Part shown: positions 566 to 59,095 of the stretch, piece after piece
How the letters are laid out: each line of letters begins with the position of its first letter
Numbering within the stretch: position 1 is the first letter of the stretch
Assembly (NCBI GenBank): GCA_003223395.1
Contig: QHUZ01000056.1
Coordinates: forward strand, 597-64,596
Length of the DNA: 64,000 bases
Source of the DNA: Gemmatimonadota bacterium
GTDB taxonomy: Bacteria > Gemmatimonadota > Gemmatimonadetes > Gemmatimonadales > GWC2-71-9
Direction of reading: 5' to 3'
The notes under the pieces: model-generated
Seen by the model: the letters and a program-made list of their open reading frames with translations, nothing else
Database searches by the model: none
What the model was told of the DNA's origin: nothing
Made by a program: the position numbers and the translations under genes

Positions 566-1749
566 CCGAAGGTCTCTCCCCCAACCTGCAGCATCTCGAG
601 ACGTCGGCGACGATCGCGATTTCGGCGGAAGCCAAGCGGCGCAAGGCCGCGGGGGAGGACGTCATCGATCTCGGCGCGGGCGAGCCCGACTTCCCGACGC
701 CGTCGATTCCCGCCGAGGCGGGGATTCGCGCGATCAAAGACGGGAAGACGCACTATTCCGCCAACGAGGGAATCCTGGAGCTGCGCGCCGCGGCGGCGAC
801 GCATCTCTCCCTGCTGTCGGGCGGCCGGCCGGTCAACGCCGATCACATCGTGGTCTCGAATGGCTCCAAGCAATCGCTCTTCAACGCCTGCTTCACCCTG
901 TTCGGCCCTGGCGATGTCGTCGCGATTCCGTCGCCCGCGTGGGTGTCGTACCCGCAGATCGTACACCTCGCGCGCGCGCGACCCGTGATGATCGCCGGCG
1001 ATCTGGAGTGGAGCCTCAAGGCGAGCGTGAAGGACCTCGAGCGCATGTTGCCAGGGGCCACCGGGCTGATTCTCTGCTCGCCCTGCAATCCCACCGGCGC
1101 CGTGTACACGCATGCCGAGATCCGCGCGATCGCGCAGTGGGCGAAGGCCAAGAAGGTGTGGGTGATCGCGGATGAGATCTATCGGCGGATTCACTACGGC
1201 ACGGGGCCGGCGCCGTCATTCCTCGATCTCCCGGACGATCTGCTGGAGCGCGTGGTGCTCATCACCGGTGTCAGCAAGACGTACGCGATGACCGGGTGGC
1301 GCATCGGCTTCGCGCTCGCGCCCGCCAAGATCGCGAAGGCGATGGCGGCGCTGCAGTCGCACACCACGACGGGCGCAAATCATCCCGCGCAATTCGCCGC
1401 CGCGGCTGCCCTCGGCGACGAACGCGTGGAGCAGGACGTCAATCGCATGGTCGGTGAATTCCGCAAGCGCCGCGACCTGGTCGTGGCCCGCTTCCGGCAG
1501 GATCTGCCGGGTGTCGAATTCGTCGATCCGCTCGGCGCGTTCTACTTCTTCTTTCGAGTGGACTCGTTCGGCAAGATCACGGGAACGGACTTCTGCACGC
1601 GTCTGATTACGCAGAGCGGCGTCGCACTAGTCCCAGGCGCCGCGTTCGGCGACGATCGGTGGGTGAGGTTGTCTTATGCGGCAGCAACCGATTCGATCAA
1701 GCAGGCACTCGATCGAATTGTGAATTTCGCCCGCAAACTGGGGGACTAG
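562..1749 (+). CDS. PLP-dependent aspartate/aromatic aminotransferase (class I/II)
   Basis: 395-aa ORF with NPTG and SKTYAMTGWRIG (PLP-lysine region), AspC-like throughout. Confidence 0.9.
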   Translation: MTEGLSPNLQHLETSATIAISAEAKRRKAAGEDVIDLGAGEPDFPTPSIPAEAGIRAIKDGKTHYSANEGILELRAAAATHLSLLSGGRPVNADHIVVSNGSKQSLFNACFTLFGPGDVVAIPSPAWVSYPQIVHLARARPVMIAGDLEWSLKASVKDLERMLPGATGLILCSPCNPTGAVYTHAEIRAIAQWAKAKKVWVIADEIYRRIHYGTGPAPSFLDLPDDLLERVVLITGVSKTYAMTGWRIGFALAPAKIAKAMAALQSHTTTGANHPAQFAAAAALGDERVEQDVNRMVGEFRKRRDLVVARFRQDLPGVEFVDPLGAFYFFFRVDSFGKITGTDFCTRLITQSGVALVPGAAFGDDRWVRLSYAAATDSIKQALDRIVNFARKLGD

Positions 1750-2930
1750 AGTTTCGCCGGCCGATGTGACAGCACCTCAACTCCATTTGCCGTCATCATG
1801 CAGTCATCTTCGATCCGCACCCCAAACTTCCCGAGCTGATAGATCCCCGGTTCGTCGGTAAACACGATCCCGGGCTCGAGCACGGTCGTATTGCCTTCGA
1901 CCATGTACGGCGGCTCGTGGCCATCCATACCCATGCCGTGCCCCAACCGGTGCGTGAAGTACTGCCCGTAGCCCGCATCGGTGATCACCTTCCGGGCCGC
2001 ACGATCGACCTGCTGACACTGGGTGACGCCCGGTTTCGCGTTCTCGATTGCGGCCGTCTGCGCGTCGTGCACGATGTTGTAGACCTTCTTGAACTCATCG
2101 GACGGTGCGTCGCCGAACCAGATCGTGCGCGTGATATCCGACGTGTAGCCCTCGACCCGCGACCCGGCATCGATCAGCACCACCGTCTCGCGCGTGAGCT
2201 GCCCGGCCGAGGGACCACCGTGGGGTAACGCGCTGGATGGGCCGAACTGCACCAGGCCGCCACCCGGCGAGCCGCGGCTCGCCATTTCGCGCGAGAGCAG
2301 CTGCGCGACGTCGCGCTCCGTCATGCCGACGGCCAGCTGCGAGAACGTCGCGGCGATCGACGCTTCCGTGGCCGCGATCGCTTGCCGGATCAGGGCGATC
2401 TCCTCGGGGCTCTTGATGATCCGCAGGCGCTCGGTGACCAACGCGCCGTCCTCGAACCGCCAACCGGGAAGCGTGCGGGCGAGACGGCGATAGCTCTGGT
2501 AGGACGTCGTGGGCTCGATCCCCATGACCCCGGAGGGCCCCGCGGCCCTGCCAACGAGGGTCCACGGATTCTCGTGCTCTTCCCAGCCACGGGCGTCGCT
2601 GATGACGGTGTTGCGCTTGATGCGCTCGACCTCGAACGACGGGCAAACGATGACCGGCGCGCGACTCGCCGGAATCATCAGGAGGATCAGCCGCTCGCTG
2701 CGCCCGGGATTGTAGCCGGTGAAGTACTGGAAGTTCGTACTGGGCTCGACGACGAGGAGATCGAGTTTGCGCGACTTGAGCTCGTCCTGGGCGCGCGCGA
2801 TGCGTTGCGCGAATACTTGAGGGCCGACCGTGGGTGTCTGTGACCGCCCGACCGCCCGACCGCCGGTCGTCCGAACCGTTGCTCCCATCACCACACCGCC
2901 AGTGACCGCCAGAAACTCGCGTCGTTCCAT
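1746..2930 (-). CDS. M24-family Xaa-Pro dipeptidase/aminopeptidase with Tat-like leader
   Basis: 394-aa ORF. MERREFLAV leader. M24 metal-ligand blocks DAGSRVEGYTSDITRT, HRLGHGMGMDGHE and EPGIY..RIED. Confidence 0.85.
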   Translation of the reverse strand: MERREFLAVTGGVVMGATVRTTGGRAVGRSQTPTVGPQVFAQRIARAQDELKSRKLDLLVVEPSTNFQYFTGYNPGRSERLILLMIPASRAPVIVCPSFEVERIKRNTVISDARGWEEHENPWTLVGRAAGPSGVMGIEPTTSYQSYRRLARTLPGWRFEDGALVTERLRIIKSPEEIALIRQAIAATEASIAATFSQLAVGMTERDVAQLLSREMASRGSPGGGLVQFGPSSALPHGGPSAGQLTRETVVLIDAGSRVEGYTSDITRTIWFGDAPSDEFKKVYNIVHDAQTAAIENAKPGVTQCQQVDRAARKVITDAGYGQYFTHRLGHGMGMDGHEPPYMVEGNTTVLEPGIVFTDEPGIYQLGKFGVRIEDDCMMTANGVEVLSHRPAKL

Positions 2931-48649: not shown

Positions 48650-49152
48650 GAGACCGCCCGCTGCAGCGCCGCCTCGAAGACTTGCTGATCCTCGGGGCGC
48701 TCGACGACGAACGACACCTGTTCGGGGAATTGCGCGCTACCGCGATGGGCGTGCAACACCGTCGCCATGATTTCCGCTGAATCCTCGAGCGTCAGATTCC
48801 CGGCGCCCGTGCCGAGCGGCGGCGCGCTGAGGTGCACGAACTCCCATTCCTGCGCCTGATGCAGCGTGGACAGCCAGGCACGCGCGACGTTGCCGCGCGT
48901 CACCGGCTCCGTTTCGCTGCGAATGATGGCGTGGATCACGAATTCCGCGGGGAGATCGCCACCGGCGGCGGTCACGACCGCGCCCCCGACCGCCAGCTCG
49001 CGGTTCAGGCGGATGCGGTTCTGGAATTGTTCACCGCCGGCGATCTCGACGCGCCGCAGCGCGGCGGCCGTGGGATCGAGGCGAGTGGTGGCGGGACGGA
49101 CGAGGGCATCGGCGGCGAACGACGCGAGATCGTCCACGACTACGCGAATCAC
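48646..49152 (-). CDS. macro-domain protein (ADP-ribose binding/hydrolase family)
   Basis: 168 aa. DALVRPA, GGAVVTAAGGDL..FVIHA and SAPPLGTGAGNL blocks. Confidence 0.8.
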   Translation of the reverse strand: MIRVVVDDLASFAADALVRPATTRLDPTAAALRRVEIAGGEQFQNRIRLNRELAVGGAVVTAAGGDLPAEFVIHAIIRSETEPVTRGNVARAWLSTLHQAQEWEFVHLSAPPLGTGAGNLTLEDSAEIMATVLHAHRGSAQFPEQVSFVVERPEDQQVFEAALQRAVS

Positions 49153-50105
49153 CTACCCGACATTTCCCGCGAGCGGCGGTACATCGCAGTCGCTTCGTCG
49201 GGGCGGTTCAACCGATCCAGTACCTTGCCGATGCCGTACAGCGCTTTCGGATTCGCGGGCTGCAGCTCGACCGCTCTTTCGTATGCGGCCAGCGCGCCGG
49301 TCAAATCATCCATGTGATTGAGCGCTTCGCCGAGGTAATACCAGGCGGCCGCACGTTCCGGCTCGACGGCGACCGCGCGCTGCAGTTGGTCGGTGCCCTC
49401 GCGCCACATGCCACGGCGCGTGAGGACGATGCCGAGGTTGAACAGCGCTTCCACGTTGTTCGGGTCGGCGCGCAACACGCGCTGCAGGTCGCGCTGCGCC
49501 GCGGCGTAGCGGACTGTGGCACCGAGGATCGCGGCGCGGTTCATCAGCAGCGCGGGATTGTCGGGTTCGCTCTCGAGCGCGCGGTCCAGCTCCGCCAGGG
49601 CGCCGTCGCGATCACCACGAGCATCGAGAATTAACGCGAGGTTGTTGCGCGCTTTCACGTGCTTGGGATCGCGCGCGAGGAGATCGCGATACGAGGCAGC
49701 AGCCCGCTCGGTCTCCCCGCGCTCGCTGGCTTCCCTGGCCGCGATGTACAGCGGGTCGTCAGGCGTCGGAGCCGATGGCTCCGGCGGGGCGGTCGAGGAC
49801 GGTGGAGGAGGTGGAGGCACTGTAGGCGGTGGAGCAGCCGGCGGGGGCGCCGGAGGTTCTGGCTCGCCGTCGTCCAGCCTTGCCTTGATGTCTGTAGGTG
49901 TCAGGGTCGCTAGAGGTTGCGCGATGCGAAGTGGCGGCGGCTGTTCGTCGCGCGCGACATCGTTCGGGGTCGCGATCGCTCCCGTTTGGGTCAGCGATTC
50001 CGCTTCCTCGATGAGTTCGGCCGCGACCCGTGCCCGCTCCTGCGACGTCTGCCAGCGGCGTTCGCGCTTGCCTCCGGGGGGGCCGGGGGGGCCGCCGCGG
50101 TTCAT
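49149..50105 (-). CDS. TPR-repeat protein with proline-rich N-terminal region
   Basis: PPAPPPAAPPPTVPPPPPP tract followed by 5-6 TPR units. Confidence 0.75.
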   Translation of the reverse strand: MNRGGPPGPPGGKRERRWQTSQERARVAAELIEEAESLTQTGAIATPNDVARDEQPPPLRIAQPLATLTPTDIKARLDDGEPEPPAPPPAAPPPTVPPPPPPSSTAPPEPSAPTPDDPLYIAAREASERGETERAAASYRDLLARDPKHVKARNNLALILDARGDRDGALAELDRALESEPDNPALLMNRAAILGATVRYAAAQRDLQRVLRADPNNVEALFNLGIVLTRRGMWREGTDQLQRAVAVEPERAAAWYYLGEALNHMDDLTGALAAYERAVELQPANPKALYGIGKVLDRLNRPDEATAMYRRSREMSGR

Positions 50106-50160
50106 GTCAGCACCTGCGCGTTTGGGGTCATGGGGGATGCTAACGTAGGAAAGTGGAGAG

Positions 50161-50190
50161 TTGACCGCAAGCCAGTTGCCTATCTAGCCT
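50161..50190 (+). promoter_or_regulatory. candidate uvrA promoter TTGACC-18-TAGCCT
   Basis: Lies 8 nt upstream of ATG 50199. AAGGG between the box and the start codon could alternatively serve as a Shine-Dalgarno. Confidence 0.3.
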
Positions 50191-50198
50191 AAGGGTCT

Positions 50199-53048
50199 AT
50201 GCCCGGTGATGCGTTGATTGTCCGCGGCGCACGCGAACATAACCTCAAGAACATCGACGTCGAGTTGCCCCGGAACGCCCTCGTGGTCATCACGGGGCTG
50301 TCCGGCTCGGGGAAGTCGTCCCTTGCCTTCGACACGATCTACGCCGAGGGACAGCGTCGCTACGTCGAATCCCTTTCCGCCTACGCCCGGCAATTCCTTG
50401 GGCTCATGGACAAGCCCGACGTGGACGCGATCGAAGGACTCTCGCCGGCGATTTCCATCGAGCAGAAGACCGCGGGCGCCAATCCGCGGTCTACCGTCGG
50501 CACGATCACTGAGATCTACGACTACCTGCGCCTGCTGTGGGCCCGTACGGGGACGCCGCATTGCCCGAACGATGGCACGCCGGTCGAGCGGCAGTCCGCG
50601 TCACAGATCACCGATCTCGTGCTCGAGTGGCCGGAAGGTACCAAGATCGAGGTACTCGCGCCCCTGGTGCGTGGGCGCAAGGGTGAGTTTCGCGACGTGT
50701 TCGAGGCGATGCGCAAACAGGGCTTCGTGCGTGTCCGCGTCGATGGCGAGACGTACGATCTGACCGACGTTCCCAAGCTGAACAAGCGCCAAAACCACGA
50801 GATCGCCGTGGTGGTCGATCGGTTGGTCGTGCGTCCCTCCGACCGCGGCCGGCTCGCCGACTCGATCGAGACCGCGCTGAAGGCGGCCGACGGCGTCGTG
50901 GAAGTCGTCCGTCAGACTGGCAGCCCGCGGTCCCGGATGTTCTCCGAGCGCTATGCGTGCCCCAAATGCGGGCTGTCGTTGCCCGAGCTCGAGCCGCGCC
51001 AGTTCTCGTTCAACTCGCCGTACGGTGCCTGTCCCGATTGCTCAGGACTCGGCACGCGGCGCGAGGTGAACGCCGATCTCGTGCTGGGCGACCACAGTCT
51101 GTCGATTCTCGAGGGCGTCGTGCTCCCGTGGGGCGAGCCGAGCGGCTACCTAAGGAAGGTGGTGCTGCCGGCGCTCGCCAAGACCTACAAGTTCGATCTC
51201 AACACACCGTGGCGTGATCTGTCTCCCGCGGTCCAGAAGATTCTGCTCAAGGGCGCGCCCGGAAAAACGATCACCTATCAGTACGACAGCGAGCGCTGGC
51301 ACGGCTCCTATGAATCGGCCTGGAAGGGCGTGCTCGATCACGTCGACAAGCGCTACCGCGAAACGGCCTCCGATGCGGTGCGTGAGCAGCTCGAGCAGTT
51401 CATGGTCGAACAGCCGTGCCCCACGTGCGGCGGCCGCCGTCTCAAACCGGAGAGCTTGTCGGTCCTGGTCGCCGGCAAGAGCATCGGCGACGTCGTGGCG
51501 CTTCCAGTGCGCGAGGCACTCGACTTTTTCTCGAAAGTCCCCTTGCGCGGCAATGGCCGAGCGGGGCTTGATCCGGAAATCTCCCGTCCGATTCTGAAGG
51601 AAGTGACCGACCGGCTGCGATTCCTCGTGGATGTCGGCCTCGACTATCTGACGCTCGAACGTTCCGCGGTGACGCTCTCGGGCGGCGAGGCCCAGCGAAT
51701 TCGGCTCGCGACGCAGATCGGCAGCCGTCTCGTCGGTGTGCTGTACATCCTCGACGAGCCGTCGATTGGCCTGCATCAGCGCGACAACGCGCGCCTCCTG
51801 GCCACGTTGAAGGAGCTGCGCGACCTCGGCAACACCGTGCTGGTCGTGGAGCACGACGAGGAAACGATCCGGTCGGCGGACTATGTCGTGGACCTAGGGC
51901 CGCGCGCCGGCCGGCATGGGGGCGAAGTCGTGGCGGCAGGACCGCTCGACGAGGTGCTCGGCAGTCACGACTCGCTGACCGCGCGGTATCTCCGCGGCGA
52001 GCTGCGCATTCCGCTGCCGCCCCGGCGCCGTATCGCCAGCACCGATCGCATGCTCCGTGTGCTGGGCGCGAAGCACCACAATCTCAAGGATCTCACCGTA
52101 GACGTTCCGCTCGGACTGTTCGTCGCGGTAACGGGTGTGTCGGGCTCGGGAAAATCGACGCTCGTGACCGACATCCTGTACCAGGCGTTGGCGCGTCACT
52201 TCTATCGCGCCAAAGTCGTCCCCGGTGCGCATGAGCGGCTCGAGGGACTCGACCATATCGATAAAGTGATCGACATCGACCAGAGCCCGATTGGCCGCAC
52301 GCCGCGCTCCAACCCGGCGACGTACACGGGGCTCTTCACGCCGATCCGGGAGCTCTTCACCTATCTCCCGGAGTCGAAGCTGCGCGGCTACGGACCGGGC
52401 CGATTCTCGTTCAACGTCAAGGGAGGCCGCTGCGAGGCGTGCCAGGGCGACGGACTGGTGAAAGTCGAGATGCACTTTCTGCCTGACGTGTACGTCCCGT
52501 GCGAAGTCTGCAAAGGCCGGCGTTACAACCGGGAAACATTGGAGGTCCGTTATAAAGGAAAGTCGATCGCCGACGTGCTCGACCTGACGGTCGCCGACGC
52601 GCTCGACTTCTTCGAGCATCAACCGCGCATCAGAGCGAAACTCGAGTTGCTCAATGACGTAGGTCTGGGATACATCCACCTCGGGCAGTCGGCAACGACC
52701 CTCTCGGGCGGTGAAGCCCAGCGCGTGAAGCTCGCGACTGAGCTCGCCAAACGGGATACGGGTCGCACGCTGTACATCCTGGACGAGCCGACGACCGGAC
52801 TGCACTTCGAGGACGTACGGTTGCTGCTGGAAGTACTGCACCGGCTCGTGGACAAGGGGAATACGGTCGTCGTCATCGAACACAATCTGGACGTCGTGAA
52901 GACCGCCGATTGGGTGATCGACCTGGGGCCCGAAGGTGGGGAGCTGGGTGGTCGCGTGGTGGCGGAAGGGCCGCCCGAGAAGATCGCGCAGTCCAAAGGC
53001 TCTCATACGGGCGAATTCCTGCGCAAGGTGTTGCAGGCGGGAGACTAG
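50199..53048 (+). CDS. uvrA: excinuclease ABC subunit A
   Basis: 949 aa. Two ABC modules ([18 protein letters not shown]) and zinc-finger cysteines. Confidence 0.98.
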
Positions 53049-53078
53049 GCCATAGGTTGGACGAGGCAAGGAGGCCGC

Positions 53079-53354
53079 GTGTTGAACGGTCCTGAACTTC
53101 CGATGATGATCTTGTTTGTGAGTATCGCCGCGGTGTTCATCATGCGCGGCCAGTTTGGGCGCGCCATCGCCGAGCGGATTGCGGGGCGCGCGCGGACCGC
53201 CACCGAAGACCAGGATGTCCGAGAGCTCAAGGGCGAAGTGGAAGAGCTGCGCAACCAGCTGTATGAAGTGCAGGAGCGGCTCGATTTCGCCGAACGCCTG
53301 CTCGCGCGCCAGGACGAGCGCGCCGGTGTCTTGCCCAAACGCGGGGCCGAGTAA
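53079..53354 (+). CDS. small single-pass membrane protein, ERLDFAERLL family, copy 1
   Basis: AAGGAGG lies 4 nt upstream of the GTG. TM helix, AIAERIAG box, C-terminal QERLDFAERLLA. Confidence 0.75.
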   Translation: MLNGPELPMMILFVSIAAVFIMRGQFGRAIAERIAGRARTATEDQDVRELKGEVEELRNQLYEVQERLDFAERLLARQDERAGVLPKRGAE

Positions 53355-53357
53355 TCC

Positions 53358-53606
53358 ATGCCCGAAGAAGTCGTCTTTCTGTTCGTGTTGACCATCATTG
53401 GGTCATCGGTGCTGCTGTTCCCGCTGGTGCGCGCGCTCGCGGAGCGGATTCGGCCGCGGGCAGTCGACGCCGGCGTCAGGGAAGAGCTGCAGATGCTGCG
53501 CGAGGACCTGTTGGCCGAGATTCAGCAGGCCCGCCGCGAGATCGGCGACCTGGGCGAGCGCATCGACTTTACCGAACGTCTCCTGGCCAAGAAGACCGAG
53601 CGATGA
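53358..53606 (+). CDS. small single-pass membrane protein, copy 2
   Basis: TM helix, ALAERIRP box, GERIDFTERLLA. Confidence 0.75.
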   Translation: MPEEVVFLFVLTIIGSSVLLFPLVRALAERIRPRAVDAGVREELQMLREDLLAEIQQARREIGDLGERIDFTERLLAKKTER

Positions 53607-53842
53607 ATGGGCCCGAAGCCGTCGCCGCATTCATGTTCTTCGGCGGCACGTTCTGGGTCCTGCGACCGGTGGCCGCGGCGGTCGCGAAACGCATCGCGGG
53701 CGAGCACCGCAAACCCGGCATGGATCCGGCCGAGCGTGACGAAATCATGAGCGAGCTGCGGCAGGTGCGCGAGGAAGTGGCGGAATTGGCCGAGCGGATG
53801 GACTTCGCCGAACGGCTGCTGGCGAAGCCGAGAGGCGGGTAA
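53603..53842 (+). CDS. small single-pass membrane protein, copy 3
   Basis: ATGA overlap. TM helix, AVAKRIAG box, AERMDFAERLLA. Confidence 0.75.
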   Translation: MNGPEAVAAFMFFGGTFWVLRPVAAAVAKRIAGEHRKPGMDPAERDEIMSELRQVREEVAELAERMDFAERLLAKPRGG

Positions 53843-54120
53843 TGGAAGACATTCTCCCGCTTTTCATTCCAATTATCGCGGTGGGCGGCTTCTTTGCCTG
53901 GATGATTGCGCTGTCTCCGGTCGGGAAGGCTTTCGCGGAGCGCCTGCGTCACGGCCCCGTTCCGCCGGGCGGCGGAACCGCCGACGATCATGCCGAGTTA
54001 GCCGAAAGCGTGGAGCAGCTGCGCCGGGAGGTGGCGGAACTGGCGGAGCGAGTAGATTTTACCGAACGGCTGCTCGGCCAGCAGAAGGCCATGGGGCAGC
54101 TCGAGAAGCCGAGAGCCTGA
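53842..54120 (+). CDS. small single-pass membrane protein, copy 4
   Basis: TAATG overlap. TM helix, AFAERLRH box, AERVDFTERLLG. Confidence 0.75.
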   Translation: MEDILPLFIPIIAVGGFFAWMIALSPVGKAFAERLRHGPVPPGGGTADDHAELAESVEQLRREVAELAERVDFTERLLGQQKAMGQLEKPRA

Positions 54121-54166
54121 TGTTGCCCGCTGAAACGGGCCGCGGATGCGCGGCGTAGGAGAACAC

Positions 54167-54538
54167 GTGCTTTTACAGACGCCACTGCCGCCCACACCGG
54201 TCATTCCGTTCGATCCGAATCAGCTCATTCCGCTGATCGGGATGATCGGGGGATTCGTCGTAGTGGGCGTCGTGTTGTATGCATTCTTCAAGTCGGATCT
54301 GGCCGCGGCCTTTGCCGAGCGGATTCGGGCGGGGAAGCATCGCCGCAAGAAGTGGAAGGGACTGGGTGGGGAGTGGACCGACACGCCCGCTGAAGGATTG
54401 GCGGACGGGGATCACGTGGTCGAGCTGGAGCAGCGCGTGACCGACATGCAGGGGCAAATTGCCGAGATGGCCGAGCGGCTGGATTTTGCGGAGCGGCTGC
54501 TTGCGCAAAAGCGCGAGCGCTCATTGCCAGGAGCCTAG
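54167..54538 (+). CDS. small single-pass membrane protein, copy 5 (longer linker)
   Basis: GTG 54167 is preceded by AGGAG (the ORF track starts at 54146). TM helix, AFAERIRAG box, AERLDFAERLLA. The stop abuts the pspA ATG. Confidence 0.7.
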   Translation: MLLQTPLPPTPVIPFDPNQLIPLIGMIGGFVVVGVVLYAFFKSDLAAAFAERIRAGKHRRKKWKGLGGEWTDTPAEGLADGDHVVELEQRVTDMQGQIAEMAERLDFAERLLAQKRERSLPGA

Positions 54539-55303
54539 ATGGGGATCATCGATCGTCTGTCCACGCTGATCCGGTCGAACATCAACGACCTGATCTCGCG
54601 CGCCGAGAACCCGCAGAAGGTCCTCGAGCAGCTCATCGTCGACATGCGGAACCAGCTGGCAAAGGCCAAGCAGCAAGTCGCGGCGGCCATCGCCGATGAG
54701 AAGCGTCTCTCCGCGCAGGCCGAGCAGGAGAAGAAGCTCTCCGAAGACTGGGAGAAGCGGGCGGTGCTCGCCGTGCAGGAAGGCCGGGACGATCTCGCCA
54801 AGCAGGCGCTGCTCCGCTACAACGAGCATGTCCAGGGCGCCGTGCAGCTGCAGGAAACGTGGGTCAAGCATCGGGAGGAGACCGAACGGCTCAAGGCGTC
54901 GCTCCGCCAGCTCAACGACAAGATCGAAGAAGCCAAGCGCAAGAAGAACATCCTGATCGCGCGCCAGAAGCGTGCCGAGGCCCACAAGCGCATTCAGGAG
55001 ACGATGGGCGCGATCTCCGACAAGAGCGCGTTCGAGACGTTCGAGCGGATGGCCGAGCAGATCGAGCACGAGGAGCGGAAGCTGATTGCCGCGGCCGAGG
55101 TGAACGAAGATCTCTCCGGCGATTCCCTCATCAAGCAGTTCCAGGGAATCGAGGTGAAAGCCAGCGCGGACGAGCAGCTGCTCGCGCTCAAGCGCAAAAT
55201 GGGCTTGCTGCCCGGAGGGACCCAGGAGCAGGCCAAAGCGCTCGGCAAAGGCGCGAAGGATGCAGAGTTGCTCGAGGATGACGACGCGGAGCAGAAGAGC
55301 TGA
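54539..55303 (+). CDS. pspA: PspA/IM30-family membrane stress protein
   Basis: 254 aa. MGIIDRLSTLIRSNINDLISRAENPQKVLEQLIVDM N-terminus and an extended coiled coil. Confidence 0.9.
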   Translation: MGIIDRLSTLIRSNINDLISRAENPQKVLEQLIVDMRNQLAKAKQQVAAAIADEKRLSAQAEQEKKLSEDWEKRAVLAVQEGRDDLAKQALLRYNEHVQGAVQLQETWVKHREETERLKASLRQLNDKIEEAKRKKNILIARQKRAEAHKRIQETMGAISDKSAFETFERMAEQIEHEERKLIAAAEVNEDLSGDSLIKQFQGIEVKASADEQLLALKRKMGLLPGGTQEQAKALGKGAKDAELLEDDDAEQKS

Positions 55304-55337
55304 ACAAGCCGGAGGCTCCTTCCTCTAATAAGCTGTC

Positions 55338-55366
55338 GAGCGCCACGTTCGTGGCGCTCTTTGTTG
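55338..55366 (+). terminator. Rho-independent terminator-like hairpin after pspA
   Basis: GAGCGCCAC-gttc-GTGGCGCTC (9-bp perfect stem) followed by TTTGTTG. The right arm contains GTG 55351, the predicted start of the next CDS. Confidence 0.5.
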
Positions 55367-56439
55367 CGGCCCTCGTCGTCCTGTTCATCCTCAGAGTCAT
55401 CGATGTGCTGCTGCTCGTCTTCCTGGCAATCCTCCTCGCCGTCTATCTCTCGGCGATCACCGACTGGCTGGAGCATCGCTTCAACATGCGGCGCTGGCTG
55501 GGGCTGACGCTCACCGTCTTGGCGACCGTCGCGGGCGTCGCGAGCGTCGCGGCGCTGCTGGCCCCGCCGGTCGTCGAACAGACGCGCGCGTTGATCAGCG
55601 GCCTGCCGCAGACGCTCACGAACATTCAGAGTGTGCTGGCGCGCTGGGCGAGCCAGTATCCCGTGCTCGACCAGACCGAGCTCGCGAATCCGTCGTCGGG
55701 CGCCGTGTCGGGCCTCGTCACTGACGCGTTCGCCTTCTTGAGCGGCTCGATCTTCGGCTACGTGCGCGGCGGCGGCATGATCTTCATCGAAGGGGCGAGC
55801 GTCGTGGTGATGGCGCTGTATCTCGCCCGCCAGCCGGGCATGTATCGCGACGGCCTGATCTCGCTCTTCGCACCACGCCACCGGAGCATCGCCGACCACG
55901 TGTTCGATGACACCGCGGCGACGCTGCGGGCATGGGTGGTGGGTCAGCTCATCGCGATGGCCGTGCTCGCCGCCTTGACCGCGATCGGCCTGTTGATGCT
56001 CGGCGTGCCCTACTGGCTGGCATTCGGCATCTTCACCGGCCTGGTGGCGATCGTGCCATTCTTCGGCACACTCATCTCCACGCTCCTGCCCGCGCTCTTC
56101 ATGGTGGCATCCGGGGACTGGTTGACCGTCCTGCTCGTCCTGGTGCTCGGTGTGGTCGTCCACGTGTTCGAAGCGAACGTCGTCGTGCCGCGCATCATGC
56201 AACGCAAGGTCGAGCTGCCGCCGGTCCTCACGATTGCCAGCGTGCTCGTGATGGGCACGCTGCTGGGAGCGATCGGCCTGATCGTCGCCGTGCCCGTCTT
56301 GTGCGTCACGATGGTCCTGATCCGGCACATCCTGCACGGTGAGATCTACGATGAGCCGGGCCGCTTCAAACCCGCCGTCCTCCGCACCAGCGGCGCGTGG
56401 TCGGGAGTGGAGCGCCGGCAAGTCGCAGCCAAGAAATGA
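55351..56439 (+). CDS. AI-2E family transporter (PerM/YhhT-like)
   Basis: 362-aa polytopic protein. The LLLVFLAILLAVYLSAITDWL and VPRIMQRKVELPPV blocks are typical of the family. Confidence 0.85.
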   Translation: MALFVAALVVLFILRVIDVLLLVFLAILLAVYLSAITDWLEHRFNMRRWLGLTLTVLATVAGVASVAALLAPPVVEQTRALISGLPQTLTNIQSVLARWASQYPVLDQTELANPSSGAVSGLVTDAFAFLSGSIFGYVRGGGMIFIEGASVVVMALYLARQPGMYRDGLISLFAPRHRSIADHVFDDTAATLRAWVVGQLIAMAVLAALTAIGLLMLGVPYWLAFGIFTGLVAIVPFFGTLISTLLPALFMVASGDWLTVLLVLVLGVVVHVFEANVVVPRIMQRKVELPPVLTIASVLVMGTLLGAIGLIVAVPVLCVTMVLIRHILHGEIYDEPGRFKPAVLRTSGAWSGVERRQVAAKK

Positions 56440-57506
56440 CGACGCCGCAGCATCGTTTCCTGATCATCGCGGACGGTGAGTTCGGTCCCCTCACCTCGAA
56501 GACGGCCAACTCCTGCATCCGCTATTTCCCAGAACGGATTGTCGCCGTGCTCGACCGCAAGCAGGCGGGGAAGACGGTGCAAGACGTCCTTGGATTCGGC
56601 GGCAAGATTCCGGTCGTCGGCGACTTCGAGCGGGGCATCGCGCAGGGCAAAGGCGCGACCGCCGTCCTGATCGGCATCGCCCCCCTCGGCGGACGGTTGC
56701 CGGACGAATGGAAGGCGTGGCTGCGCACCGCGATCGAGCAGAAGCTCGAGATCTGGAGCGGCCTGCACACGTTCGTCGGCGATGATCCGGAGCTCGGCCC
56801 GCTCGCCAAAGCGCGCGGCGTTCGCATCCTCGATGCGCGCCGGCCGCCCCCCAATCTCCCGATCGCCGACGGCCGCGCCGCCGACGTTGACGCGCTCGTC
56901 GTGCTCGCCGTGGGATCCGATTGCAACGTCGGCAAGATGACCGCGCAGCTGCAGCTCCGCGATGCGTTGGTGAAGCGCGGCCATCGCACGAGCTTCGTGG
57001 CGACGGGGCAAACCGGGATTTTCATCGAGGGGTGGGGGATCGCGGTGGATGCGGTCGTCGCGGACTTCATCGCCGGCGCCGCGGAGCAGCTCGTCCTCCA
57101 GGGTGCGAAGGACAACGACATCGTGCTCGTGGAAGGGCAGGGCAGCCTGATTCACCCAGGATACTCCGGCGTCACGCTGGGCCTGCTGCACGGCTCCTGT
57201 CCCGACGCGCTGATTCTCTGTCATCAGGCGACGCGCGATTACATCGGCGACTATCACGGCCGCGAGCCGTGGGTGAAGATCCCGTCGTATGTCGAGATGA
57301 TCGAGATCTACGAGAGTGCGGCGCAGCCGGTACATCCGACGAAGGTGATCGGGATCTGTCTCAACACGTACGACATGGACGAGAGCGCGGCGCGGGAGGC
57401 GGTCGCCAAGGCTGCCGAGGAAACGGGTCTGCCGGCGACGGACCCGGTGCGGTTTGATTCCGACGTGCTCGTGGACGCGATCATCGGAGCGCGCGCGACG
57501 ATTTGA
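56436..57506 (+). CDS. DUF1611-domain protein
   Basis: ATG 56436 (ATGA overlap). VGSDCNVGKMT P-loop-like motif, EGQGSLIHPGYSGVTLGLLHGS. Confidence 0.8.
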   Translation: MTTPQHRFLIIADGEFGPLTSKTANSCIRYFPERIVAVLDRKQAGKTVQDVLGFGGKIPVVGDFERGIAQGKGATAVLIGIAPLGGRLPDEWKAWLRTAIEQKLEIWSGLHTFVGDDPELGPLAKARGVRILDARRPPPNLPIADGRAADVDALVVLAVGSDCNVGKMTAQLQLRDALVKRGHRTSFVATGQTGIFIEGWGIAVDAVVADFIAGAAEQLVLQGAKDNDIVLVEGQGSLIHPGYSGVTLGLLHGSCPDALILCHQATRDYIGDYHGREPWVKIPSYVEMIEIYESAAQPVHPTKVIGICLNTYDMDESAAREAVAKAAEETGLPATDPVRFDSDVLVDAIIGARATI

Positions 57507-57563
57507 TAGTAGCGGCGCGAAATTGGTACCACACGCCGCTCCTCCCGTTCCTATCGTGCCGCG

Positions 57564-58226
57564 ATGCGATTCCTGCACTGCGCCCACGCCGAATTCCTGC
57601 TCGTGGTCCCGCGCCTCACGCGGACTCGGCTCGGCATCGCGCTCCTGGCACTCGGCACGACACTCGTGTGGCTCAGCGCGCACGCCTTGGACGCCCTCAC
57701 GGTCACGCTACAGGCCGGAGCGCTCGGCGCGATCCTCGGCGCGGCCGCGATCGTGGGGGATGAGAGCGATCGGGCGGCGCTGAGCACCGCCCTCACGCAT
57801 CCCACCACGCCACTCGCCATCGCGACGGGGCGCTGGCTCGCGATCGTGGTCCCGGCGTGGGCCCTGGTCATGATCTGCGCGACGGCGACCGGCTGGCGCA
57901 CGGACGGGGTTGTGGCGGGGATGATCGCCACGGCCGCGGTTGGCAGCTTTGCGTTGGCGCTCGTGCTCCCGCTGGGCCGCGGCGTGGCGCTCGCGCTCTT
58001 CCTCTTTATGGCGATCGCCGGCACGATCCCGCCGGAGCGGCTGGTCGATCTCGCACGCCCGGGCGTGGTGCGCCTGACCGCGGCCAGCGCGATGGAGCTC
58101 GGACCGGCGCTCTGGCACTACCGCGATATCGTCGCCGCCGATTGGGGTGCGATCCTCCACGCGCTCGCGTGGACAGGGCTCGGCATTCTCGTTGCGGCGG
58201 CCTTCATCGGTCGACGTCAGCGATGA
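57564..58226 (+). CDS. hydrophobic membrane protein (possible ABC-2 permease partner)
   Basis: 220 aa, about 6 TM helices. ATGA overlap with the downstream ABC ATPase. Confidence 0.55.
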   Translation: MRFLHCAHAEFLLVVPRLTRTRLGIALLALGTTLVWLSAHALDALTVTLQAGALGAILGAAAIVGDESDRAALSTALTHPTTPLAIATGRWLAIVVPAWALVMICATATGWRTDGVVAGMIATAAVGSFALALVLPLGRGVALALFLFMAIAGTIPPERLVDLARPGVVRLTAASAMELGPALWHYRDIVAADWGAILHALAWTGLGILVAAAFIGRRQR

Positions 58227-59095
58227 CCGACTATGCTCTGACGCTCACCGACATCCGTGGCCACAGGCTCGGCCCCGTCTCCCTCGCGCTGCTGCCCGGC
58301 GAGATTGCGGGGTTGGTCGGGCCGGCAGGGGCGGGGAAGACGAGGCTGCTCCGTGTAGCGGCGGGCGCGGTGAAACCGAGGACCGGAGAGGTGCGCGTGT
58401 GGGGAATGCGCGTCACCGATCCCGCGGCGCGCCGGCTCATCGGATATGCCGGCGACAATCCGGTATTTCCGCGCGCGCTCACCGTTCACGAAGTGCTGAC
58501 GTACTATGCGCGCCTGCATTGCGGGATGAGCAACGAACGCAATGCGCGGGGGCTGGTGCGCGAAGCTCTCGAGATCACCGGCCTGGCGGCGGCAGCGAAG
58601 CTGCGCGCGGACTCGCTCGGGAGAGCGGATCTGCACCGTCTCAACTTTGCGCAGGCTGCGCTGGCTGGACGGCGGGTGCTGCTGCTCGATGAGACATTCT
58701 CGGGGCTCGACGCCTTCGCGCGCCGGGATCTGCGTGGCCGGATCGCGCGGCTCGCGGCGGAGGGCGTCGCCGTGTTGATCACCGCGCGCGACCCCGCCGC
58801 GCTGGAACGGCTCGCCGCGCGTGTACTGGTCCTGCGCGACGGACGGATCGTCCGCGCCGGTCCCCTGGCGACCCTCCTCGGCGAGCGCGTTCTCGAAGTG
58901 ATTCTGGACGCCCCACCCGCCGAGCCGCCTCCCGGTTTCCGCGTCACCGCCGCCGGTTTGGAGGCGCCGCTGGCCGGCAGGACCGTCGAAGCGGCGCTGG
59001 CGTTGTGCCGGGCGCACCGGCTGCCGGTTCGGGCCTCGCGCGTGCGCGTGAAGTCGCTCGAGGAGATCGTGCTGGAAACCCACGACGCCCACTAG
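58223..59095 (+). CDS. ABC transporter ATP-binding protein
   Basis: ATG 58223 (MTDYALTL). Walker A GPAGAGKTR, Walker B LLLDE. Confidence 0.8.
   Translation: MTDYALTLTDIRGHRLGPVSLALLPGEIAGLVGPAGAGKTRLLRVAAGAVKPRTGEVRVWGMRVTDPAARRLIGYAGDNPVFPRALTVHEVLTYYARLHCGMSNERNARGLVREALEITGLAAAAKLRADSLGRADLHRLNFAQAALAGRRVLLLDETFSGLDAFARRDLRGRIARLAAEGVAVLITARDPAALERLAARVLVLRDGRIVRAGPLATLLGERVLEVILDAPPAEPPPGFRVTAAGLEAPLAGRTVEAALALCRAHRLPVRASRVRVKSLEEIVLETHDAH

Follow-up and report, generated by a model that had tools for sequence, protein, structure and literature searches.

PspA, IM30 and Vipp1 are bacterial ESCRT-III membrane-repair polymers. The targeting of such PspA-type polymers to the membrane has, to our knowledge, been worked out for a few model systems only, namely PspBC, LiaI and PspM. 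Here we ask what is encoded by five small genes that stand in tandem directly upstream of a pspA gene in a Gemmatimonadota bacterium, and whether their products could be partners of PspA. The analysis started from a 64,000-nt stretch of DNA (assembly GCA_003223395.1, contig QHUZ01000056.1, positions 597 to 64,596 of the forward strand), referred to as the window, in which a first-pass annotation had described the five open reading frames (ORFs) as diverged PspB-like membrane proteins. The five genes turned out to belong to a very large family without a match among the Pfam or NCBIfam models, and in almost all of the loci examined in one phylum this family is tied to pspA. The family occurs as multi-paralogue arrays whose products share one invariant cytoplasmic helix and differ in their transmembrane (TM) helices.

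A phylum-wide array of small genes tied to pspA

The array lies between uvrA and pspA, with all five ORFs on the plus strand. Copy 1 (53079-53354, 91 aa), the first array gene, is supported by its ORF, an AlphaFold2 model and its orthologues and carries the boxes AIAERIAG and ERLDFAERLL; copy 2 (53358-53606, 82 aa), supported by its ORF and the alignment, carries ALAERIRP and ERIDFTERLL. The corresponding boxes are AVAKRIAG and ERMDFAERLL in copy 3 (53603-53842, 79 aa; TM helix AVAAFMFFGGTFWVL) and AFAERLRH and ERVDFTERLL in copy 4 (53842-54120, 92 aa). Copy 5 (54146-54538), which ends in ERLDFAERLL, measures 130 aa from ATG 54146 or 123 aa from GTG 54167 and is of a pspA-proximal type, with a Pro-rich N-terminal extension and a basic linker, KHRRKKWK. 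From copy 1 to pspA the junctions are +3, -4, -1, +25 and 0 nt: an ATGA overlap joins copies 2 and 3, a TAATG overlap joins copies 3 and 4, and the TAG stop of copy 5 directly abuts the ATG of pspA. The five overlapping or closely spaced ORFs and their position upstream of pspA were thus confirmed, and alignment of the five proteins reproduced the two conserved boxes that had been read from the sequence. In each protein a short N-terminus leads into one TM helix, which is followed by the AxAERI box, a linker that varies between copies and a long helix with ERxDFxERLL at its end.

The last gene of the unit, pspA (54539-55303, plus strand), encodes a PspA/IM30 family protein of 254 aa. A Pfam search matched its residues 2-219 to positions 1-216 of the 220 in PF04012 (E 1.2e-42, 146.4 bits, cut-off 33.9), and the NCBIfam model TIGR02977 was matched with E 1.9e-36 and 125.9 bits, under its equivalog cut-off of 242.95. 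Judged by this sub-cut-off score, the protein is a member of the PspA/IM30 family rather than an equivalog of proteobacterial PspA.

The five ORFs are real genes under purifying selection and not products of chance or composition. The GC content at the three codon positions is about 0.72/0.42/0.78 in the named frames, and equivalent small genes were called on related contigs by the independent JGI and NCBI gene callers. Against orthologues from five related genomes, the ratio of nonsynonymous to synonymous substitution rates (dN/dS) of the small genes was 0.09-0.44 overall (copy 1, 0.21-0.26; copy 2, 0.15-0.44; copy 3, 0.09-0.29; copy 4, 0.15-0.33; copy 5, 0.14-0.34), at dS values of 0.6-1.6, which are near saturation; pspA gave 0.03-0.11 in the same comparisons. 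With dN/dS below 1 across orthologues, the conserved boxes are not a composition artefact, a possibility that the first-pass annotation had itself raised. The synonymous codons used for the ERxDFxERLL motif differ from copy to copy, and the 71-nt segment that encodes it is 65-76% identical between copies at the DNA level, long near-identical tracts being absent. The motif is thus kept as protein while its DNA has diverged, indicating that conservation acts on the protein and that there has been no recent gene conversion.

In the alignment of the five proteins, the copies are only 34-39% identical to one another, and the invariant positions are A29, A31, R33, E66, R67, D69, F70, E72, R73, L74 and L75. 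Position-matched orthologues of copies 1-5 in the closest genomes (L001-L005, L047) are 60-83% identical and colinear, some of these genomes having extra copies inserted into the colinear order. Orthologues of copy 1 are 63-70% identical and hold the first array position in L001-L005; those of copies 2 and 4 are 62-80% and 63-79% identical, respectively. In most of 22 loci compared, the first slot is copy-1-like and the last slot, adjoining pspA, is copy-5-like. The copy-3-like type is the most conserved one and supplies most of the top database matches, with TM helices nearly identical in many genomes. The paralogue identity, the divergence of the motif DNA and the positional orthology rule out a recent duplication or gene conversion. 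The proposal that old, diverged paralogues are being maintained therefore holds, and the history of the array is, as read from these identities, one of birth-and-death evolution of old, sub-specialised paralogues. Some database ORFs fuse two copies (P0001) or a copy with the N-terminus of PspA (P0277, raw-read data). Frameshifts or read-through most likely explain these and similar ORFs (P0001, P0003, P0045 and P0277 among them) as artefacts, and they were left out of the evidence.

The profile of the five copies matched at least 7,593 clusters at 90% identity, and no Pfam domain was found among them. In an exhaustive HMMER scan over 1.84 billion representatives, 2,204 clusters at 50% identity reached E <= 1e-3, and 321 of them reached E <= 1e-10. 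All named matches were either Gemmatimonadales entries annotated as 'hypothetical protein' or entries bearing spurious automatic names (such as UbiJ, YlxW and ArsR, from JGI). A scan of one genome per species yielded at least 429 confirmed loci, and the locus statistics given here rest on the best 80 of them; all 80 belong to Gemmatimonadota, as does every named member. The family had not been recognised in the first-pass annotation, and in line with this no Pfam or NCBIfam model for it was matched by the window copies or by 148 diverse members. The SHOCT domain (PF09851), in particular, was absent from the 25 commonest Pfam matches of the 148 members and from the window-copy matches at E <= 10, and the spacing from the Phe to the terminal LL differs from that of SHOCT by eye. 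Viral contigs yielded no relatives, which argues against a family carried as phage cargo.

The family occurs as same-strand tandem arrays in the 80 loci. In arrays that lie fully inside the locus and are followed by pspA, the number of copies ranges from 2 to 14, with a median of 6. Five, the number of copies singled out at the outset, is therefore not special but one value in a phylum-wide range. Among the 69 loci with at least 1.4 kb of DNA downstream of the array, pspA follows on the same strand within 700 nt in 68; the lone locus without it (L072) has a different architecture, described below with its TM2-domain protein. Conservation of the array and its linkage to pspA, which had been put forward for checking in related genomes, were thus both borne out. 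The intra-array junctions (n = 361) have a median gap of -1 nt, and 118 of them are 4-nt overlaps; such short or overlapping junctions are a signature of translational coupling.

In 38 of the 68 linked loci pspA follows the array directly, as it does in the window. The other 30 have a gap of approximately 400-600 nt between array and pspA, and wherever the ORF was readable (22 loci) this gap holds a gene of about 130 aa. The one such gene that was scanned (131 aa, L040:6280-6675) matched CesT_Tir_1 (PF22550) with E 2e-25, which joins the array to the CesT/Tir-PspA dyad, a published PspA context (PMC11237479). The CesT/Tir-like insertion marks a sister clade, and the window has no such gene between array and pspA.

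One membrane helix and a portable cytoplasmic helix

An AlphaFold2 model of copy 1 (62 aligned sequences, mean pLDDT 75.8) consists of a TM helix (residues 6-23), a juxtamembrane, amphipathic helix over the AxAERI box (25-34) and, after a short loop, a long helix (41-83). A Foldseek search of the PDB with this model returned nothing (best E 4.5), as is expected of simple helices. A strongly hydrophobic 18-mer close to the N-terminus is present in 96% of 390 members, and the mean number of Lys and Arg residues is 0.7 ahead of the TM helix compared with 3.0 in the 15 residues after it. This charge bias, taken together with the hydrophobic 18-mer, predicts an N-out, C-in topology, so that the small proteins should be bitopic, with 4-25 periplasmic residues.

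As read from the sequences, hydrophobic residues of the long helix are spaced 3-4-3-4 for about four heptads, which indicates a coiled coil. In its last two helical turns, E-R-h-D-F-a-E-R-L-L, invariant residues occupy all faces, as would be expected of a fully engaged interface rather than of a simple zipper core.

The same helix was found on a second type of protein. In L072 the gene at 1548-2006 (plus strand) encodes a TM2 (NINE)-domain protein (PF05154, E 1.2e-15) with ...ELAERVDFAERMLAQQKER as its C-terminal end. Used as a query, this protein matched 1,130 relatives; the best 120 (P0396-P0515) are TM2 proteins over their full length, 133-171 aa long and mostly of about 141-152 aa. Among these 120, ERxDFxE[RK]x[LIVM] is kept in 119, within a C-terminal helix of the form ELAERxDFAERxL, the AxAERI box is absent, and all those with an organism name are Gemmatimonadales. 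In the contexts examined (L081-L085), the TM2-fusion genes adjoin the transhydrogenase genes pntAB, with or without a glycosyltransferase gene. The presence of the helix on a TM2 protein encoded elsewhere suggests a portable module for docking or assembly.

A further idea, that the motif mimics a helix of PspA, arose from a DNA repeat family that tied the motif to positions 55048-55083 within pspA (MAEQIEHEERKL ~ MAERLDFAERLL). It was ruled out, since the family hidden Markov model (HMM) scores PspA at about 2 bits, a value that 8% of shuffles reach.

Start sites, probable transcript end and flanking genes

Shine-Dalgarno-like sequences accompany several of the starts. AAGGAGG lies 4 nt ahead of the GTG start of copy 1, and AGGAG lies 6 nt ahead of the ATG of pspA. 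Because the Shine-Dalgarno sequence TAGGAGAA precedes GTG 54167, this codon is probably the true start of copy 5, in preference to ATG 54146.

The array and pspA are flanked by uvrA (50199-53048, plus strand; UvrA domains) and, downstream of pspA, by a gene for an AI-2E family transporter (55351-56439, plus strand; GTG start 55351). A terminator-like hairpin with a T-run (55338-55359, plus strand) begins 35 nt past the pspA stop; it has a 9-bp stem with 7 GC pairs and the tail TTTGTTG, and it straddles the GTG start of the transporter gene. The same hairpin recurs in L003 (8577-8598) and was not detected in L005. The unit probably has its 3' end at this hairpin, which could act as an operon terminator or could form a structure that influences how the following gene is translated.

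Farther downstream on the same strand are a gene for a DUF1611 protein with both N- and C-domain (56397-57506), a hydrophobic ORF of 220 aa (57564-58226) and an ABC ATPase gene (57857-59095). The order AI-2E transporter, DUF1611 protein, 222-aa gene, ABC ATPase is repeated in L086, so a conserved syntenic block extends past pspA. Upstream of uvrA and divergent from it, a gene at 49149-50105 on the minus strand encodes a TPR-repeat protein whose long N-terminal region is rich in Pro and Ala.

Possible roles of the array and comparison with known systems

On balance, we favour the view that the small proteins are membrane-embedded, oligomerising partners or anchors of PspA, the contact with PspA being deduced from gene order and coupling. 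They would sit in the inner membrane with the N-terminus out and the C-terminus in, and would oligomerise with themselves and with each other through the shared cytoplasmic helix, parallel bundles being plausible by analogy with the four-helix bundle of KcsA. At the membrane they would tether, nucleate or regulate the PspA/IM30 polymer, for which PspB/PspC of E. coli and LiaI of B. subtilis offer comparisons. The differing TM helices may confer differing membrane or protein-complex specificities, which would account for a repertoire of 2-14 copies with each type conserved. A more specific version, which we put forward tentatively and with some doubt, is that the ERxDFxERLL helix is a dedicated PspA recruitment or assembly motif, and that an expandable set of 2-14 adaptors, each with a conserved TM helix of its own, together with the TM2 protein, would target PspA polymers to different membrane sites or lesions or nucleate them there.

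Several observations weigh against a partnership with PspA. The small proteins are tied to PspA by nothing more than gene order and coupling; PspA itself bears no similarity to the family profile, and in the contexts examined the TM2-fusion genes, which carry the same helix, are not near pspA. The near-invariant turns at the end of the helix, with residues fixed on all faces, and the likeness to KcsA fit pure self-assembly as well as they fit docking of PspA. The similarity to PspB, weak and largely non-directional as detailed below, cannot be used to transfer a function by homology. Furthermore, uvrA lies immediately upstream of the array in 38 of the 59 loci with enough upstream DNA, and with so frequent a neighbour some of the synteny may be historical. 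On the side of expression, no sigma-54 promoter match was found in 52505-54961 and no sigma-70-like match across 49800-57800. On the same strand, copy 1 follows the uvrA stop at a distance of only 30 nt, and this short gap, taken together with the lack of a promoter match, makes co-transcription of uvrA and the array possible; transcripts of the array and pspA may start inside uvrA or read through it.

These observations on uvrA are also what could be said for an incidental linkage to pspA, in which the small genes would belong with uvrA or with the conserved syntenic block and have an unrelated membrane role, as the location of the TM2 protein away from pspA would allow. We consider this very improbable. 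The link to pspA (68/69) is far tighter than that to uvrA (38/59), the stop codon of copy 5 abuts the pspA start in the window, and the sole insert between array and pspA, that of the sister clade, is CesT/Tir-like and itself a known PspA partner context.

The description of the small proteins as PspB-like led us to ask whether they are divergent true PspB homologues, forming a PspB-only, multi-copy phage shock protein (Psp) signalling system by which, as in E. coli, PspA would be sequestered and released. TIGR02976, the PspB model, was the commonest weak NCBIfam match, being listed for 61 of the 148 diverse members (best E 3.1e-5) compared with 20 for the next family, but none of the 148 reached the curated cut-off of TIGR02976 or that of PF06667, for which the best E-value was 0.025. 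Window copies 2-4 scored 13-15 bits against TIGR02976, where the cut-off is 51.7; this model was unlisted for copies 1 and 5, and PF06667 was unlisted for any window copy. The profile comparison by hhalign, one of the checks that had been proposed, gave a weak colinear match in which 'rvaELeERlD' is placed over 'RIQALESILD' in the same heptad register, but its probability was only 52% (P 1.4e-4) and the PspB profile was narrow, built from the best 120 matches, all from Enterobacteriaceae, with a plasmid tblastn search adding one 50%-identical Aeromonas sequence.

Aligned with E. coli PspB, the family HMM runs colinearly over almost the whole protein, TM helix and cytoplasmic helix included, and scores about 16-18 bits. 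Segment-preserving shuffles reached 17.5 bits in 9 of 2,000 cases, with a shuffle mean of 6.4 +/- 3.1 bits compared with 15.7 for PspB. Much of this score does not depend on direction: reversing the cytoplasmic part of PspB lowered it from 15.7 to 11.5 bits, the cytoplasmic part alone gave 9.5 bits forward and 3.7 reversed, and the PspB HMM gave real members 2.3 bits compared with 2.1 once their cytoplasmic part was reversed. The direction-specific share is approximately 4-6 bits. Moreover, the C-terminal tail of KcsA, which is not homologous, scores as high as PspB (20 bits), and this weakens the PspB homology signal.

In architecture the resemblance is real, for PspB and the array proteins alike have about 75-130 aa, one N-terminal TM helix, an N-out/C-in topology and a cytoplasmic heptad helix, share an operon with pspA and align colinearly over a common L-E-x-x-L-D stretch; operon duplicates of PspB are also known, as reported in PMC11237479. 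However, PspB lacks both the AxAERI box and the ERxDFxERLL extension, the array genes stand upstream of pspA in 2-14 copies in an order that differs from pspABC, and no PspC or Sigma54-activator (PspF) families were called by Pfam among the genes within about 10 kb in L086 and L087, nor were PspC or PspF present among the window neighbours examined, which covered the neighbourhood of the locus only. No solved structure of PspB is available for comparison. The earlier label thus stands for architecture (TM helix, topology and helix) and not for homology, which on these sequence comparisons is unproven between the two families, and we regard a true PspB system as unlikely.

The match to KcsA bears on a further explanation, in which the small proteins form a self-contained hetero-oligomeric membrane bundle with an activity of its own (a pore, leak valve or scaffold), held together by the cytoplasmic ERxDFxERLL coiled coil much as the C-terminal four-helix bundles of KcsA and NaV hold their tetramers. 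PspA would then be co-expressed only alongside the bundle or to protect the membrane from it, without specific docking. The family profile matched TM2 and the C-terminal bundle of KcsA (PDB 3eff, chain K) with E 0.005, aligning the KcsA sequence ...LHERFDRLERML with ...LEERLDFAERLL; within the four-helix-bundle region, …LHERFDRLERMLDDNR matches the family motif …LEERLDFAERLLAQQR. The C-terminal coiled coils of bacterial NaV proteins also matched the profile weakly, and the C-terminus of KcsA is known to be a parallel four-helix bundle (PMC2217246). KcsA, NaV and the family alike have a TM helix followed by a cytoplasmic helix with E-R-h-D-x-x-E-R-h-L (ERFDRLERML in KcsA, ERLDFAERLL in the family), although the family lacks a channel domain. 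The type-conserved TM helices with their GG and aromatic motifs suggest specific helix packing, which would suit such a bundle, as would residues that are invariant on all faces of the last two helical turns. On the other hand, a range of 2-14 copies argues against a machine of fixed stoichiometry, the TM helices show no sign of polar pore-lining residues, and the KcsA match is weak and explicable by the architecture and a short motif. Near-universal coupling to pspA is explained no better by a self-contained bundle than by docking, and we judge this bundle rather improbable, a shade more so than a true PspB system. The KcsA match is most likely convergent, and it serves us as a structural analogy and as a decoy for the comparison with PspB.

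If the cytoplasmic helix of the array proteins binds PspA, it would represent a new docking motif, and the arrays would be a natural experiment in which adaptor diversity tunes a repair polymer. If it does not, the proteins would still constitute a new family, a candidate for Pfam, with a portable oligomerisation module. Such an array is present in Gemmatimonas (L036, a metagenome-assembled genome of Gemmatimonas sp.), a genus with cultured species, which should make the hypothesis testable.

Small membrane partners of PspA are an already known kind, and what is new is a phylum-wide, multi-paralogue array without a database match, with one docking-like helix that also occurs on TM2 proteins. 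The first-pass annotation had held a five-fold array in front of pspA to be undescribed, and consistent with this, Gemmatimonadetes go unmentioned in the main text of two Psp phylogenomic surveys; full-text literature searches on phage shock proteins in Gemmatimonas, and on PspB-like proteins or PspB paralogues or duplicates, returned nothing relevant. The CesT/Tir-PspA dyad (yjfI-yjfJ type) is reproduced between array and pspA in 30 of the 68 loci, whereas the published dyad contexts, in the available part of PMC11237479, come without an upstream array of single-TM proteins. Were the array proteins to aim PspA at different sites, they would make up a combinatorial adaptor system without a described counterpart in bacterial Psp systems, akin in concept to the adaptor-recruited ESCRT-III of eukaryotes.

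For gene order and proposed role, LiaI is the best functional analogy. It is encoded directly upstream of liaH and anchors the PspA homologue LiaH to the membrane (PMC9239133). In both cases the gene for a small membrane protein stands immediately upstream of, and coupled with, a gene of the PspA family. No similarity to LiaI was detected, LiaI/DUF2157 not being among the listed Pfam matches, and no LiaFSR-type regulator adjoins the array. LiaI belongs to the multi-TM LiaI-LiaF-TM domain family (PMC11237479); it is a single-copy protein with several TM helices, whereas the array proteins are multi-copy with one predicted TM helix each.

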